NCBI RefSeq assembly: GCF_001735745.1
Contig: NZ_CP017260.1
Span: 2,700,001 to 2,732,000, forward strand
Source: Formosa sp. Hel1_33_131
Lineage (GTDB): Bacteria > Bacteroidota > Bacteroidia > Flavobacteriales > Flavobacteriaceae
Length of the DNA: 32,000 bases
Direction of reading: 5' to 3'
In this document: positions 6,460 through 11,333 of the stretch, piece after piece
Numbering within the stretch: position 1 is the stretch's first letter
How the letters are laid out: each line of letters starts with the position of its first letter
The notes under the pieces: model-generated
Told to the model about the DNA's origin: nothing
The model's input: the letters and a program-made list of their open reading frames with translations, nothing else
Databases searched by the model: none
Program-made: the position numbers and the translations under genes

Positions 6460-7071
6460 ATGCCTTTTAAAAAATTACATTCTGATATTCGAGAGAAATT
6501 AGAATCTCTAAACATACAAACGCCAACGCCATTTCAGAGCAGCAGCATTCCCATTATTAAAAGTGGTGTGAATGTATATTGCACCGCTCCTAAAGACAGT
6601 GGTAAAACAACCACCCTTGTATTGACTACCTTACAAAAGTTAAAATGTGAGGCTGACGGAAATGCGCCTAGAGCCGTTGTTCTTGTAGAAAACAAGGAAC
6701 GGGCGATGGAATTATACGAAACGTTTTTAGCCTATACAAAATACAATTCTTTACGCGTTTATGTAGGGCATGAACAGCTGCATATAGACATTCAGAAATC
6801 GGAAATATTTGAGGGTACAGACATTCTTATTTCTACTCCCAAAACAATGAATAAGTTGTTCTTATTAAATGGTGTCAGCACTGCACAATTAAAAATAATC
6901 AGTATTGATGATGCGGAATTTCTTTCGCAACACTCCTCCTATTCGGCGATTATGTCGATTTCTCAGAGTATCCAAAAATGTCAATATGTCATTTACTCAG
7001 AAAAAATGACTAAAATGCTTGAGCGTTTTGAATCTTATTTTATGGAACGTTCAAAAATCGTTTCTTTTTAG
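6460..7071 (+). CDS. Stand-alone DEAD-box helicase domain-1-like protein with degenerate motifs
   Basis: 203 aa. It has a Q-motif-like TPFQ, Walker A APKDSGKT, a PTRELA-position KERAMEL, STPKT for TPGR and DDAE for DEAD. No RecA domain 2 is present. Confidence 0.65.
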   Translation: MPFKKLHSDIREKLESLNIQTPTPFQSSSIPIIKSGVNVYCTAPKDSGKTTTLVLTTLQKLKCEADGNAPRAVVLVENKERAMELYETFLAYTKYNSLRVYVGHEQLHIDIQKSEIFEGTDILISTPKTMNKLFLLNGVSTAQLKIISIDDAEFLSQHSSYSAIMSISQSIQKCQYVIYSEKMTKMLERFESYFMERSKIVSF

Positions 7072-7771: not shown

Positions 7772-8953
7772 TTACGCTAACAAATCATATTTGTTACTTG
7801 GAGGAAATAATAAATTTAAACTATTGTCTTTTAATTTAAATAAAGGTCCTTTTTCTGCGCCTCCACCAGTTGGAGTTCTTTTGATTAAATGATCTACTGT
7901 AATTATTCCTTGTTCTAAAAGTAAATCAAATTGTGAGATAATTGGTTTTCTTGTGTGTTCAACTAGTTTATATTGAAAATGTTCTTTGCCTCTTATTTTA
8001 ATACTATCAGCAGCGATCCAAAATGTTTCTTTATGTTTCTCTAATAGTCGTTGATGTAATTTTTCCAGAGTCCATACAACAAAATCACCAACTTCTTTTT
8101 TGTCCGAAGTTTCTATTAAATGGTTTATATCTGAATTAATTTTTAATGAGAGACCTTGTGAGTTGACTACAATAGTAGATAAAGTACAATACAATTTAAA
8201 AGCACTTCCTCTGCTATAACCGAACTCATTTAATATCTCTGTTGAATTTTTAAATTTGCTTAATGTCCAATCTGGTACTTGAGCAAATAAATTCTTCCGA
8301 TTCCCTTTTGAAGATCGATAAGATTTCAGTTCAATTCCTTTGTAATCTGGTAATTTAGAAGAATTAATATCTATTCCCAAGGCTGTTTCTAAAGTACGTC
8401 CAACAGATGTATCAGCATTAACCATTGAAGGAATTGGACCTTTCTTAGCAATTGTTGTTAATAAGCCTAGTAATTCATTCGCAATTACATTTTCATTATA
8501 ATTAATTTCTTGTACTAATTCTTTTAAGGGGTTAGAATTAACACCATTTATTAATTGGCTAACTGGCAGTTGAGTTACATTGATAATGTGAATTACACCA
8601 TCAAAACAAATTAATCCTAGAACATCATTTGGTTGTGTGTGTTTAGATATTTCTGAAAACCATATTCTTGGATCTCCTGTTTTTGTCTTAGGCCTGTATA
8701 ACGAAGTTTTGGATTTTAAAACAGAATTTACATCATAAATTAAAGCATCAATAATTATTTTATGATCAGGACCTTGAAGTTGTAAGCTATAATCGTGAAA
8801 GTTATTAGTTCTTAAATAATTCCTTACAGTTCCGGTTGCATCCATTATAGACTTCTTAAGTCCATTTTCAGTAGGTTCAATTAAAGTTAAGGAGATTGAG
8901 TTTTTAGTTAAAACCTTAAGCTTATCTTCTTCTTGGGGAGTTAATAATCTCAT
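7772..8953 (-). CDS. Putative type II restriction endonuclease: MutH/Sau3AI/MvaI-BcnI-like PD..ExK core in the C-terminal half, unassigned N-terminal domain
   Basis: Residues ~184-212 (GRTLETALGIDINSSKLPDYKGIELKSYR) match the MutH-family pattern G..lE..LG....s..PD...ELK(S/T). The start codon overlaps the methyltransferase stop codon (ATGA). Confidence 0.6.
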   Translation of the reverse strand: MRLLTPQEEDKLKVLTKNSISLTLIEPTENGLKKSIMDATGTVRNYLRTNNFHDYSLQLQGPDHKIIIDALIYDVNSVLKSKTSLYRPKTKTGDPRIWFSEISKHTQPNDVLGLICFDGVIHIINVTQLPVSQLINGVNSNPLKELVQEINYNENVIANELLGLLTTIAKKGPIPSMVNADTSVGRTLETALGIDINSSKLPDYKGIELKSYRSSKGNRKNLFAQVPDWTLSKFKNSTEILNEFGYSRGSAFKLYCTLSTIVVNSQGLSLKINSDINHLIETSDKKEVGDFVVWTLEKLHQRLLEKHKETFWIAADSIKIRGKEHFQYKLVEHTRKPIISQFDLLLEQGIITVDHLIKRTPTGGGAEKGPLFKLKDNSLNLLFPPSNKYDLLA

Positions 8954-11163
8954 TTAATGTGTTTCAAAATTTCAATTGCAACTGCTCTAGCCATTAATGG
9001 AGGCACTGCGTTTCCGACTAATGTATATTGGGGCAGTTCGGTTTTTCTATTATTTCCGCCCGTTGAACGTTTTCCTTGAAAAACGAATGAATCATCAAAT
9101 GATTGTAACCTTGCCATTTCCCTAACAGTTAATGCTCTTGGTGAGTTATAGTGAATGTAATCATCTGGAATAGTCATAACCGTAGGACTTTGATTCTCTG
9201 GTTTTAATACATTGTAATTTCTTTTATTAGACGATAAACCACATTCATTTAATTTATTTTGTGCTTTTTTATAATTTCCTTCTTTTAAAATTATATCAAG
9301 TCGTTTAATTACATCCTCTCCTTGGTTACTTGTTTTATGATTATGAAGTAGGTCATAAACTTTTTCTCCATTATTAAGAGCTAATTCACTTTTTACATAA
9401 AAAGGTTTGGTTGCTTTTTCAAATCGACCGTTTAGCCGACCTCTCTTACTCCATTCTGCAAAAGTTTTCCCTTTAGTTTTTATGAGTTTACCATCAATTG
9501 AACGAGCCTTAATTAGACCTTTCATTTTTTTAGCAGTTACATTATACTGTTTAGAAATATCTACTGACTGATATTGGTGAGCTTCTTGATTATTGCCAAT
9601 AAAATCTAAATCATAAAGCGCTTCGAAAACAGAAACCTTCTCTTCTTCCTTAACAGTAGCAGGAATCTCAGATATGAATTTTTGATCTTTTCTACACCCT
9701 ATAAATAAAACACGCTCTCTATTTTGTGGTACTCCATAATTTGATGAATTTGCTACAAATGGCGCTTCTATTTTATAAAGTCTTATATCACTGATAATTG
9801 TATCTAATTCATTGCTTTGTTCTTTGTCACAATAGGCACGAATCATTGTGAGACAATCATCAATATTTAGGACATATATTTTCAATGCTTGTATTATATC
9901 GTCACAAGATTTCTTAAAGTCTTTTACTACATTTAATCCATCAAATGCTTCTTCGACTTTATTGATTATTTCATTTGAATCAATATCCGTGAGGAATTGA
10001 GTGAAAGAATCTACAAAGAAATCGTTATCAATATTACAAAAATCCTTTTCACGAATAATATCTCGTTTAAGTTTTTCCCATTCTTTACTTCTAGCTAAAA
10101 TATTAAAACCGTGTCTGATCGTGCTAATTCTTTCATCCGTTTTACTCGTTTTGTAGTCAACAATATCTGGAGTTAACTTTCTGAACTTAGCATCAATTGT
10201 TCGTATATAAACTTCTTTCACTTCTTCAATTTTAGAATCCGTAAACTGTTCAATTTCAATTCTTTTAATCAAACAATCTAACAAGAAACCGTTATCTGTA
10301 TTAGTCGTTTTTAAAGATTTAATAAAAGAGGCTAAACGAGGGATTTCTTTAATATCAACAATGGAATTAATTTCTTTTAGAATTAGTTCTTTTATTTTCC
10401 CTTTTTCCTTTGTTAAAATTCCTTTTACATTCTCCATAATAAAGTACTTGGGCTGAAGTACTTTGATTACTCCCAAATAATGAGCAAATAAATCATCCTT
10501 TTTATCAAACTTCTTTCTTTTGCCTGCTAAACTAAAACTCTGACAAGGAGGGCCTCCACAAACTACGTCAACTTTTTTGCCTTTGGTTTTCGAAATTAAA
10601 TTATCCAAAAAATCAGGTTCTGTAATATCTTGACATAAAAAATCCGCATCCAATCCTAATTGATGATTGTATCTTACTATATGAGTTAATTCAGAGTTAT
10701 CATTTATATCATTTGCTACAAGAAAATCAAAGAATTTATTGTTATGCTCTGCTTGTAAAAAACCTTCACTAAAACCGCCCGCACCTGCAAATAAATCAAC
10801 AAACGTAAACGGTTTACCGTATAGAGGGATTTGTTCCCTTACAATGTTAACATTGTGATTCTCTTTGTAAGCTTTTACAAAACCATGTAACTTTGTTTTG
10901 ATTTCATTATTAGTATAACTTTTTTTATAGGAATTGTTTAGTAGTTCATCTGCCCTCTCCTTTAAATAATTCAAATAATGGTTAATTTCAGTAGATCTTT
11001 CTGAGTTTTGTTTTACAGTTTGAGTTTCCTTATCAAAATCTTGCCGTTTTATTTTTTCTCCAGTTGATAATTTAATTTGTTCAGAATTACAATTAATCCT
11101 TAAGTGAATTGGAGAGAATCCTTTTTTATTTGATTTATCGAGATAGAAGTTTATTGTAGCCAT
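8950..11163 (-). CDS. DNA (cytosine-5)-methyltransferase with an N-terminal integrase-type Arm DNA-binding-like domain and a large internal insertion
   Basis: C5-MTase motifs: I FVDLFAGAGGFSEGF (aa 121-135), IV GGPPCQSFS (aa 203-211), VI ENVKG (aa 244-248), VIII QNRER (aa 480-484), IX RALTVREMARLQSF, X GNAVPP. The N-terminus, MATINFYLDKSNKKGFSPIHLRINCNSEQIKLSTGEKIKRQDFDKETQTVK...EINHYLNYLKER, follows the Bacteroidota tyrosine-integrase Arm-domain pattern. Confidence 0.9.
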   Translation of the reverse strand: MATINFYLDKSNKKGFSPIHLRINCNSEQIKLSTGEKIKRQDFDKETQTVKQNSERSTEINHYLNYLKERADELLNNSYKKSYTNNEIKTKLHGFVKAYKENHNVNIVREQIPLYGKPFTFVDLFAGAGGFSEGFLQAEHNNKFFDFLVANDINDNSELTHIVRYNHQLGLDADFLCQDITEPDFLDNLISKTKGKKVDVVCGGPPCQSFSLAGKRKKFDKKDDLFAHYLGVIKVLQPKYFIMENVKGILTKEKGKIKELILKEINSIVDIKEIPRLASFIKSLKTTNTDNGFLLDCLIKRIEIEQFTDSKIEEVKEVYIRTIDAKFRKLTPDIVDYKTSKTDERISTIRHGFNILARSKEWEKLKRDIIREKDFCNIDNDFFVDSFTQFLTDIDSNEIINKVEEAFDGLNVVKDFKKSCDDIIQALKIYVLNIDDCLTMIRAYCDKEQSNELDTIISDIRLYKIEAPFVANSSNYGVPQNRERVLFIGCRKDQKFISEIPATVKEEEKVSVFEALYDLDFIGNNQEAHQYQSVDISKQYNVTAKKMKGLIKARSIDGKLIKTKGKTFAEWSKRGRLNGRFEKATKPFYVKSELALNNGEKVYDLLHNHKTSNQGEDVIKRLDIILKEGNYKKAQNKLNECGLSSNKRNYNVLKPENQSPTVMTIPDDYIHYNSPRALTVREMARLQSFDDSFVFQGKRSTGGNNRKTELPQYTLVGNAVPPLMARAVAIEILKHIK

Positions 11164-11174
11164 ACTTTATATTG

Positions 11175-11210
11175 CGGACGTTTTTACGGACACGGACAAA
11201 TTTACGGACA
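11175..11210. repeat. Four direct CGGAC(A) hexamer repeats (TGTCCG on the gene strand) just upstream of the methyltransferase start
   Basis: Copies start at 11175, 11187, 11193 and 11205, giving 12/6/12-nt spacing. The gene strand reads TGTCCG-taaatt-TGTCCG-TGTCCG-taaaaa-CGTCCG-caatataaagt-ATG. Confidence 0.85.
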
Positions 11211-11333
11211 GCAAGTAATATAACCTACTAAAATTTATAATATTTCCATTTACCCTGTTCAATTCACATCATCACTTTTGCTCAACATCCATAATAAAAA
11301 TTCAAAAAACTCCAAGTTAGAACAGAAATCGTT

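Follow-up and report, generated by a model that had tools for sequence, protein, structure and literature searches.

A conserved direct-repeat array on the predicted promoter of Arm-domain DNA methyltransferase genes in Bacteroidota as a candidate autorepression operator

What reads a cluster of four short direct repeats placed just ahead of the start codon of a DNA methyltransferase gene, and to what effect? The question is raised by a 32,000-nt stretch of the genome of Formosa sp. Hel1_33_131 (contig NZ_CP017260.1, positions 2,700,001 to 2,732,000 of the forward strand; this whole 32-kb stretch is referred to as the window). It contains a restriction–modification (R-M) cassette composed of a C5 cytosine methyltransferase gene (M) and an endonuclease gene (R), and the methyltransferase has an N-terminal domain (N-domain) similar to the arm-binding (AB) domain of tyrosine integrases. 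The original prediction suggested that the repeats are an operator for this Arm-like domain. Comparison of the locus with its relatives leads us to the same candidate: the Arm domain probably binds the repeats and represses the M–R operon.

The array itself has exactly the letters and the spacing that had been claimed for it. The gene (–) strand from 11210 to 11161 reads TGTCCG-taaatt-TGTCCG-TGTCCG-taaaaa-CGTCCG-caatataaagt-ATG, where ATG (11163–11161) is the start codon of the methyltransferase gene, separated from the fourth site by 11 nt; on the forward strand the copies are CGGACG (site 4) and CGGACA (sites 3, 2, and 1; coordinates in Table 1). The core common to all four sites is the pentamer GTCCG, the fourth hexamer deviating at its first base, and at sites 1, 3, and 4 the core extends to Y-GTCCG-Y-R-A. 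The four copies are repeated in direct orientation at start-to-start distances of 12, 6, and 12 nt, and a repeat finder describes the array as two tandem 18-nt units, 83% identical to each other. The pentamer CGGAC occurs 14 times on both strands of the window, four of these occurrences falling in the array, and no other GTCCG-N7-GTCCG pair, with up to one mismatch, was found across the window. Among 1000 sequences simulated from a first-order Markov model of the window, only 4 had four copies of any G+C-rich pentamer on one strand within 36 nt; the clustering of the repeats is not a matter of chance.

A protein search identified hundreds of Bacteroidota methyltransferases of about 737 amino acids (aa) with the same two-domain architecture. 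Eighty genome loci (loci are denoted below by L numbers) were chosen by protein match alone; their proteins are 69–90% identical to the window methyltransferase, and they span Flavobacteriaceae (many genera), Marivirga, Roseivirga, Saprospiraceae, Chitinophagales, Bacteroidales, Draconibacterium, Alkalitalea, and others. The array GTCCG-TAnnTTT-GTCCG-T-GT(C/A)CG-TAAAAAC-GTCCG, with at least 31 of 35 positions matching, is present in 77 of the 79 loci for which the upstream sequence is available, the other two (L017 and L048) have a single 18-bp unit, that is, half of the array, and none of the 79 lacks it. Conservation in homologous loci, which had been left as a point for checking, is therefore nearly complete, all of these loci encoding the Arm domain.

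In the alignment of 78 loci the information content is about 2 bits per column from position –1 to position +34 of the array (the T preceding site 1 through the final G of site 4), dropping below 1 bit immediately upstream; at position 20, in site 3, 26 loci have C and 52 have A. In pairs of loci with N-domain identity below 60%, the identity of the array is 0.91, compared to 0.345 for the 60-nt upstream stretch and 0.356 for four-fold synonymous positions. As the array retains 91% identity where the upstream and synonymous sites have dropped to approximately 35%, that is, to saturation, we conclude that the array DNA is under strong purifying selection. The distance from the array to the ATG is 3–22 nt across about 200 loci.

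The element is also retained by more distant relatives. A 739-aa methyltransferase with 62% identity to the window protein (L081/L082) is preceded by a perfect tandem, two copies of TGTCCGTAAATTTGTCCG, and in a relative with 50% identity (L083) the four-site array is intact, ending 3 nt ahead of the ATG. The most divergent N-domains (L224, L225) have kept one 18-bp unit, TGTCCGTAAATTYGTCCG. The number of sites hence varies: L017, L048, L224, and L225 have a single unit, whereas L071 has five sites. Since L224 and L225 retain one unit, the ancestral element apparently consisted of two sites with one spacer and was duplicated later. In L083 the methyltransferase itself (158–2342) is broken into two open reading frames (ORFs) of 496 aa and 233 aa; the next gene encodes a HhH-GPD glycosylase in the place of an endonuclease.

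Metagenome contigs were scanned with a 28-nt array pattern without regard to genes, yielding at least 119 loci. Among the matches listed, an Arm-type ORF starts 3–22 nt downstream of the array in 119 cases out of 119, and these ORFs belong either to the family of the window protein (MATINFYLDK..., 735/737 aa) or to a second family (family B; MINVKFYLDKADKSK..., 741 aa, 58% identical overall to the window protein). GTCCG-N7-GTCCG pairs outside the array were found in none of the 83 loci searched (several kb each on average). In viral contigs we observed 20 matches to one 17-nt unit, all of them isolated, with neither a second unit nor a methyltransferase nearby, and they look like chance hits inside unrelated sequence. 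The genes flanking the cassette are different in every locus, and none of the neighbors in the window (dioxygenase, RlmF-like, and TMP synthase genes) recurs in the other loci. As M is the sole constant companion of the array, the factor acting on it in trans should be either M or a universal factor of the host or the phylum. The proposal of the Arm-like domain and the direct repeats as a candidate autoregulatory pair gains support from the conservation of the array, the selection acting on it, and its linkage to Arm-type genes, as well as from its position on a predicted promoter element, considered below.

The cassette consists of M and R only, is approximately 3.5 kb long, and has a G+C content of about 0.30, compared to 0.35–0.41 in the flanks. 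An integrase-like gene is found within the fetched flanks in 5 out of 199 loci, and there is none in the window. The cassette is clearly horizontally mobile, with no recombinase of its own. It occurs in marine and freshwater Flavobacteriia, Cytophagia, Saprospiria, and Bacteroidia, and, given this wide distribution, the candidate regulatory pair evidently works phylum-wide.

The array coincides with a predicted promoter. Flavobacterial sigma-A promoters have a –7 box, TAnnTTTG, that occupies positions –12 to –5, and the median length of the 5' untranslated region (5'UTR) is 24 nt (PMC9723704). Spacer 1 together with the first bases of site 2 reads TAnnTTTG in 73 loci out of 76 and TAnnTTCG in the other three; TA and TTTG are 96–100% conserved, with the variation limited to nn (AA, AT, GA, GT, AG). 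By consensus, spacer 1 is thus a predicted Bacteroidetes sigma-A –7 box. With the box placed at –12 to –5, transcription is predicted to start at approximately 11192 ± 2, the first base of site 3, giving a predicted 5'UTR of 29 nt in the window and 23–33 nt in most loci. Spacer 1 being the –7 box, the sites bracket both this box and the predicted start, and the single unit of L224 and L225 brackets the –7 box as well. The initial placement of the whole array in the leader accordingly holds for sites 3 and 4, which fall in the predicted transcribed leader, and fails for sites 1 and 2, which lie in the predicted promoter on both sides of the –7 box. The leader RNA is predicted to be unstructured (minimum free energy –3.8 kcal/mol, z = +1.0) and has no match among Rfam families, and an explanation of the array at the RNA level was rejected on these grounds.

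The start of R overlaps the stop of M by 4 nt (ATGA), and no conserved internal –7 box (TAnnTTTG) was found in the last 400 nt of M; on both counts R is probably co-transcribed with M. If so, the operator alone cannot set the M:R ratio, and the suggestion that the array serves to control the balance between the methyltransferase and the endonuclease does not stand in that form.

The identity of the domain is consistent with a DNA-binding role. The ORF at 8950–11163 (–) encodes a C5 DNA methyltransferase of 737 aa, identified by its PF00145 match, with motifs I, IV, VI, VIII, and X present in the translation as FAGAGG, PPCQ, ENV, QNRER, and GNAVPP, respectively. Its residues 9–84 match PF17293 (Arm-DNA-bind_5) with 26.4 bits (the gathering score is 22.6), the scores in relatives reaching 38 bits, and no helix-turn-helix (HTH) family is among the domain matches of the N-terminus. 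PF17293 has been defined for the IntCTnDOT subgroup, where the AB domain binds subterminal arm sites (PMC8138268; PMC2817482). A domain search found neither PF13102 nor PF00589 in the window protein; the C5 methyltransferase follows the Arm domain instead. In the AlphaFold2 (AF2) model of the N-domain (residues 1–111, confidence score pLDDT 86.6), the three antiparallel strands of a beta sheet (3–8, 16–25, and 28–39) are followed by helices (among them a helix at 55–76), and Foldseek finds for it three BFVD matches with E-value below 0.001, all of them N-termini of predicted phage integrases (E-values from 2e-6 to 8e-4, TM-scores 0.66–0.72).

In a profile search of 1.8 billion representative proteins the methyltransferase family ranks first, followed by proteins of about 400 aa. 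Three sampled relatives of this second type carry PF17293, PF13102, and PF00589, which identifies tyrosine integrases as the nearest relatives of the N-domain other than methyltransferases. Five integrases align to the window N-domain from residue 1, MAT(I/V)NFYLDK, at 31–37% identity; a word-index search with the N-domain returned only fragments of the methyltransferase family, the integrases being reached by the exhaustive profile search. Judging by these comparisons, the N-domain and the arm-binding domain of CTnDOT-type tyrosine integrases are homologous. Its mean identity over 24 family members is 71%, compared to 90–93% in the catalytic motifs; against saturated synonymous sites, this estimate is well above the neutral expectation. 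The closest sampled full-length integrase relative (P0189) has a perfect tandem 12-mer, two copies of TGACACCGAATC, about 315 nt upstream of its gene (L104, 100–123). These may be the arm-type sites of that integrase, and they are unlike GTCCG.

In the scheme that we consider probable, the 36-bp array would be the operator of a self-contained two-gene R-M cassette that spreads horizontally among Bacteroidota. The sigma-A promoter, with its –7 box TAAATTTG between sites 1 and 2, would initiate transcription at about the first base of site 3, producing a leader of approximately 29 nt. The N-domain would recognize the direct GTCCG repeats (Y-GTCCG-Y-R-A), with one domain per site and up to four per promoter. 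Protein on the sites would lie over the –7 box, the start, and the initial transcribed region, excluding RNA polymerase or blocking promoter escape. The methyltransferase gene would in this way be under negative feedback, together with the endonuclease gene, which is apparently co-transcribed with it and coupled to it in translation. In a naive host, having no methyltransferase, the promoter would be open, and the operon would be throttled as the enzyme builds up. The case for autorepression is made up of the phylogenetic footprint of the conserved block, the depth of its conservation, its exclusive linkage to Arm-type genes, the constancy of M, the overlap with the promoter, the identity of the domain, the selection acting on it, and the precedent of other self-repressing methyltransferases.

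A number of observations weigh against this scheme. The motif is nearly invariant throughout the family, the most divergent relatives included, and covariation of the domain and the site therefore escapes observation: linkage is what the data document, and recognition is what we infer. The spacers are approximately as conserved as the pentamers, which makes the division into four short sites an interpretation, and the –7 box itself accounts for a part of the conservation of the array. Two domains of about 100 aa would be crowded on sites 2 and 3, only 6 bp apart, and site 3 is GTACG in two thirds of the loci. TTG at –33 is not enriched (15 of the 72 non-redundant upstream regions, compared to the background of 15%), leaving the –7 box as the one element by which the promoter is called. 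A Foldseek search of the N-domain against PDB produced nothing significant, the structural likeness being limited to predicted integrases. Moreover, the isolated N-terminal domain of the Ecl18kI enzyme failed to bind without the methyltransferase body (PMC2760811), and the behavior of the domain taken separately may hence mislead. Finally, since M and R appear to share the promoter, autorepression alone gives no delay of restriction in a new host; under a shared promoter it limits the total dose, and candidates for the source of the delay are weak translational coupling or the N-terminus of R, about 160 aa long.

Some of the same observations are accommodated if the array is read only by the host machinery, that is, by sigma-A with a further, unknown conserved Bacteroidota factor or by an alternative sigma factor, the N-domain having another function such as DNA engagement. 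Spacer 1 fits the bona fide –7 box consensus, the spacers and the pentamers are conserved to the same degree, "CGT"-type –10 boxes are known for flavobacterial sigma factors of the extracytoplasmic function (ECF) type (PMC9723704), and the contact between the N-domain and the array is something we infer. Nevertheless, the GTCCG flanks belong to no described sigma-A element, and the motif pair, which a host regulon would be expected to contain elsewhere, is found nowhere else in the fetched flanks or the window. The array is seen only with Arm-bearing methyltransferases, and the functioning of the cassette across many Bacteroidota orders and in unrelated contexts argues for a factor that the cassette itself encodes; on balance, reading by the host alone seems unlikely. 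The linkage and the homology would be equally expected if the N-domain bound the array without repressing, be it for promoter activation, for tethering or loading of the enzyme in cis, or as a capture mark for CTnDOT-type integrases, and a mobile cassette that has no transposase or integrase of its own would suit the last variant. We give these variants together only a minor chance, as sites lying over the –7 box and the predicted start form the geometry of steric repression known from Ecl18kI, rather than that of activation, core-type recombination sites, target duplications, and an association with integrases were not observed, and the ancestral single unit already flanks the –7 box. It is quite improbable, too, that the array serves in addition as an arm-site mimic that recruits, or is read by, resident CTnDOT-type integrases, abundant in these hosts; such mimicry, if true, could explain how a recombinase-less 3.5-kb cassette comes to have a different context in each genome, and would couple R-M control to mobility.

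The repeats might also be a substrate of the catalytic domain, with expression set by methylation of the promoter as in CfrBI and LlaDII: methylation-dependent promoter control does exist in other R-M systems (PMC3874152), and GTCCG contains cytosines. However, the array has no CCNGG, while the endonuclease is of the MvaI/BcnI type. The founding members of this endonuclease family cut CCWGG or CCSGG. CCWGG occurs 12 times in the window, compared to 27.4 ± 5.3 expected, and is absent from the cassette (7772–11260); in about 860 kb of host flanks (L001–L223) the observed-to-expected ratio is 0.59 for CCWGG, 1.00 for CCSGG, and 1.20 for GTCCG. The depletion hints at an MvaI-like CCWGG specificity, with GGWCC and GATC depleted to the same extent and no control genomes in the comparison. 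GTCCG, in contrast, is not depleted; moreover, being asymmetric, it would be left unprotected on one strand by a single methyltransferase, and no role would remain for the Arm domain, all of which makes this explanation highly doubtful. Still less can be said for the suggestion, also present in the original prediction, that a decayed integrative element left the repeats behind as relic arm-type att sites, or for their origin by neutral slippage duplication. Arm-type sites do repeat in direct orientation, the array has the form of a tandem 18-nt duplication, and its copy number varies. We reject the relic reading because the methyltransferase alone accompanies the array, while integrases are rare in the vicinity (the 5 loci of 199 mentioned above, with none in the window) and the flanks vary. 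The array, fixed immediately before the ATG in about 200 loci with unrelated contexts, is far more conserved than neutral DNA, and the viral matches are isolated single units, as chance would give; decay or slippage has next to no probability.

Table 1. Features of the repeat array and of the R-M cassette in the window (promoter positions are relative to the predicted transcription start).
Feature	Position	Strand	Comment
Site 1, TGTCCG	11205..11210	–	predicted –18 to –13; T-GTCCG 97–100% invariant in 78 aligned loci
Predicted sigma-A –7 box, TAAATTTG (TAnnTTTG)	11197..11204	–	fills spacer 1; the final TG is common to site 2
Site 2, TGTCCG	11193..11198	–	predicted –6 to –1; 99–100% invariant
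Site 3, TGTCCG	11187..11192	–	predicted +1 to +6; GTACG in about 2/3 of orthologous loci
Spacer 2, TAAAAA (TAAAAAC with the next base)	11181..11186	–	83–100% conserved; not a –7 box
Site 4, CGTCCG	11175..11180	–	predicted +13 to +18; GTCCG 99% invariant
Rest of the short A-rich leader, caatataaagt	11164..11174	–	length and sequence differ among loci
Arm-DNA-bind_5-like N-terminal domain, codons 1 to about 105 of the methyltransferase	10849..11163	–	PF17293 match; proposed operator-binding module
Linker and C5 cytosine methyltransferase domain	8950..10848	–	PF00145, E 6e-52, in two stretches
Restriction endonuclease gene, 393 aa	7772..8953	–	PF15515 (MvaI/BcnI), residues 165–383, E 6e-70

Apart from the N-domain, the methyltransferase contains an insertion of about 200 aa (residues ~268–470; 9754–10362, –), which falls between positions 132 and 133 of the PF00145 profile and divides the match in two; the insertion is all-helical in the AF2 model, with fairly high confidence, and its mean identity in the family is 70%. 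The AF2 model of the full-length protein (mean pLDDT 55) is of no use for the arrangement of the domains, the N-domain and the helical insertion alone being confident.

The endonuclease in the window is matched by R.MvaI (2oa9) with E-value 1e-3, and its N-terminal part of about 160 aa (residues 1–164; 8462–8953, –) has no family match. MvaI and BcnI are about 240–250 aa long. Many public contigs of 3–5 kb contain only the M and R genes. The partner of M is mostly an overlapping gene of the MvaI/BcnI type; in 11 of the 80 genome loci (L001, 6207–7136 on the – strand, L003, L008, L010, L011, L012, L017, L019, L021, L023, and L025), as well as in some metagenome loci, it is an unrelated convergent ORF of 309 aa, presumably an unrelated endonuclease paired with the same methyltransferase. 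The 309-aa proteins have no match in Pfam or PDB and are 47–81% identical among these loci. In L006 (6220–8435) M is separated from R by two additional ORFs (384 aa and 354 aa), of which the first has a sub-threshold match to GmrSD_N, and about 2.2 kb separate M from R also in L014, L020, L049, and L066. One gene, P0049 (L226, 585–2735), is a genuine 5' truncation that removed the array, the promoter, and about 30 codons (a single anecdotal case), and its 309-aa partner is fragmented into ORFs of 134 aa and 96 aa; as both genes are damaged, this cassette is decaying. P0088 (L227), considered as a natural control lacking the N-domain, was discarded, its gap being a run of scaffold Ns and the array being present. 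Elsewhere in the window, a 203-aa ORF (6460–7071, +) encodes the DEAD domain of a DEAD-box helicase without the helicase C-terminal domain and looks truncated.

The mechanisms covered by a review of R-M regulation (PMC3874152) are limited to autoregulatory methyltransferases of the HTH type, C proteins, promoters dependent on methylation, and antisense RNAs, and in a full-text literature search on the Arm domain (Arm-DNA-bind_5, PF17293) combined with methyltransferases we found no description of this architecture or of the repeats. Autoregulation by methyltransferases as such is already known, and the novelty here would be in the DNA-binding fold, the symmetry of the operator, and the type of the promoter. 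If the proposed regulation is true, this would be the first case found of an integrase arm-binding domain acting outside recombination, as a promoter-specific repressor, and a third protein solution for the control of R-M genes, beside C proteins and HTH-fused methyltransferases. It would be also the first such control described for Bacteroidota, a phylum in which promoters and regulators have been little explored, and a compact host-independent repressor with an operator of 18–36 bp around the –7 box would find use there as a genetic part. Moreover, the geometry of four direct repeats provides a clean system for studying how AB domains read DNA.

Among known systems, methylation-sensitive promoters (CfrBI, LlaDII) would be similar in that the promoter of the methyltransferase gene is under feedback from the enzyme (PMC3874152); there the cognate site lies in the promoter, whereas the array has no CCNGG and GTCCG is undepleted in the host DNA. 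With C-protein/C-box systems (C.PvuII, C.AhdI, C.Esp1396I) the cassette would share host-independent feedback encoded within the cassette and a small operator at the promoter (PMC2175313; PMC3874152), but it has no separate C gene and no HTH, the operator is direct rather than palindromic, and the methyltransferase itself would be the regulator.

The likeness to the AB domains of integrases (IntDOT of CTnDOT, lambda Int, Tn916 Int) is in the homologous domain and in the short direct repeats spaced by approximately one DNA turn. Arm-type sites are typically short and directly repeated, with about this spacing. For example, attDOT has five of them (PMC2817482). Unlike the integrases, the window methyltransferase has no core-binding or catalytic recombinase domain, and there is no core site and no associated integrase; unlike integrase arm sites, the repeats lie on the promoter of the gene encoding the domain, and the proposed output is the control of transcription, not intasome assembly.

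The closest parallel is provided by the methyltransferases of the SsoII, Ecl18kI, EcoRII, MspI, and ScrFI systems, which repress their own promoters via an extra N-terminal DNA-binding region (PMC2760811; PMC3874152); in this group, the N-terminal HTH binds an inverted-repeat operator over the M promoter and excludes RNA polymerase (PMC2760811; PMC3874152; PMC3978073). The SsoII/Ecl18kI operator AGGACAATTTGTCCT and the window array (…GTAAATTTGTCCG…, 11193–11204, –) have a 9-mer in common, AATTTGTCC, the half-sites being inverted in the former and direct in the latter, and the binding domains being unrelated; this overlap is probably a coincidence. The SsoII group differs in the fold (HTH there, the integrase arm-binding fold PF17293 here), in the operator (a single 15-bp inverted repeat, compared to two to five direct repeats), and in the gene order (divergent genes with facing promoters, compared to R co-directional and overlapping, or convergent), while the promoter considered here is of the Bacteroidetes –7 type and the binding of its operator is a prediction. 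At the same time, like M.SsoII, M.Ecl18kI, M.EcoRII, M.MspI, and M.ScrFIA, the window protein combines a C5 methyltransferase, here of a Type II system presumably of the CC(N)GG type, and an extra N-domain of about 70–110 aa, and in both cases a conserved site distinct from the methylated one lies just upstream of the M start, on the M promoter (predicted in the window); steric autorepression, known from the SsoII group, would be the expected outcome here as well.

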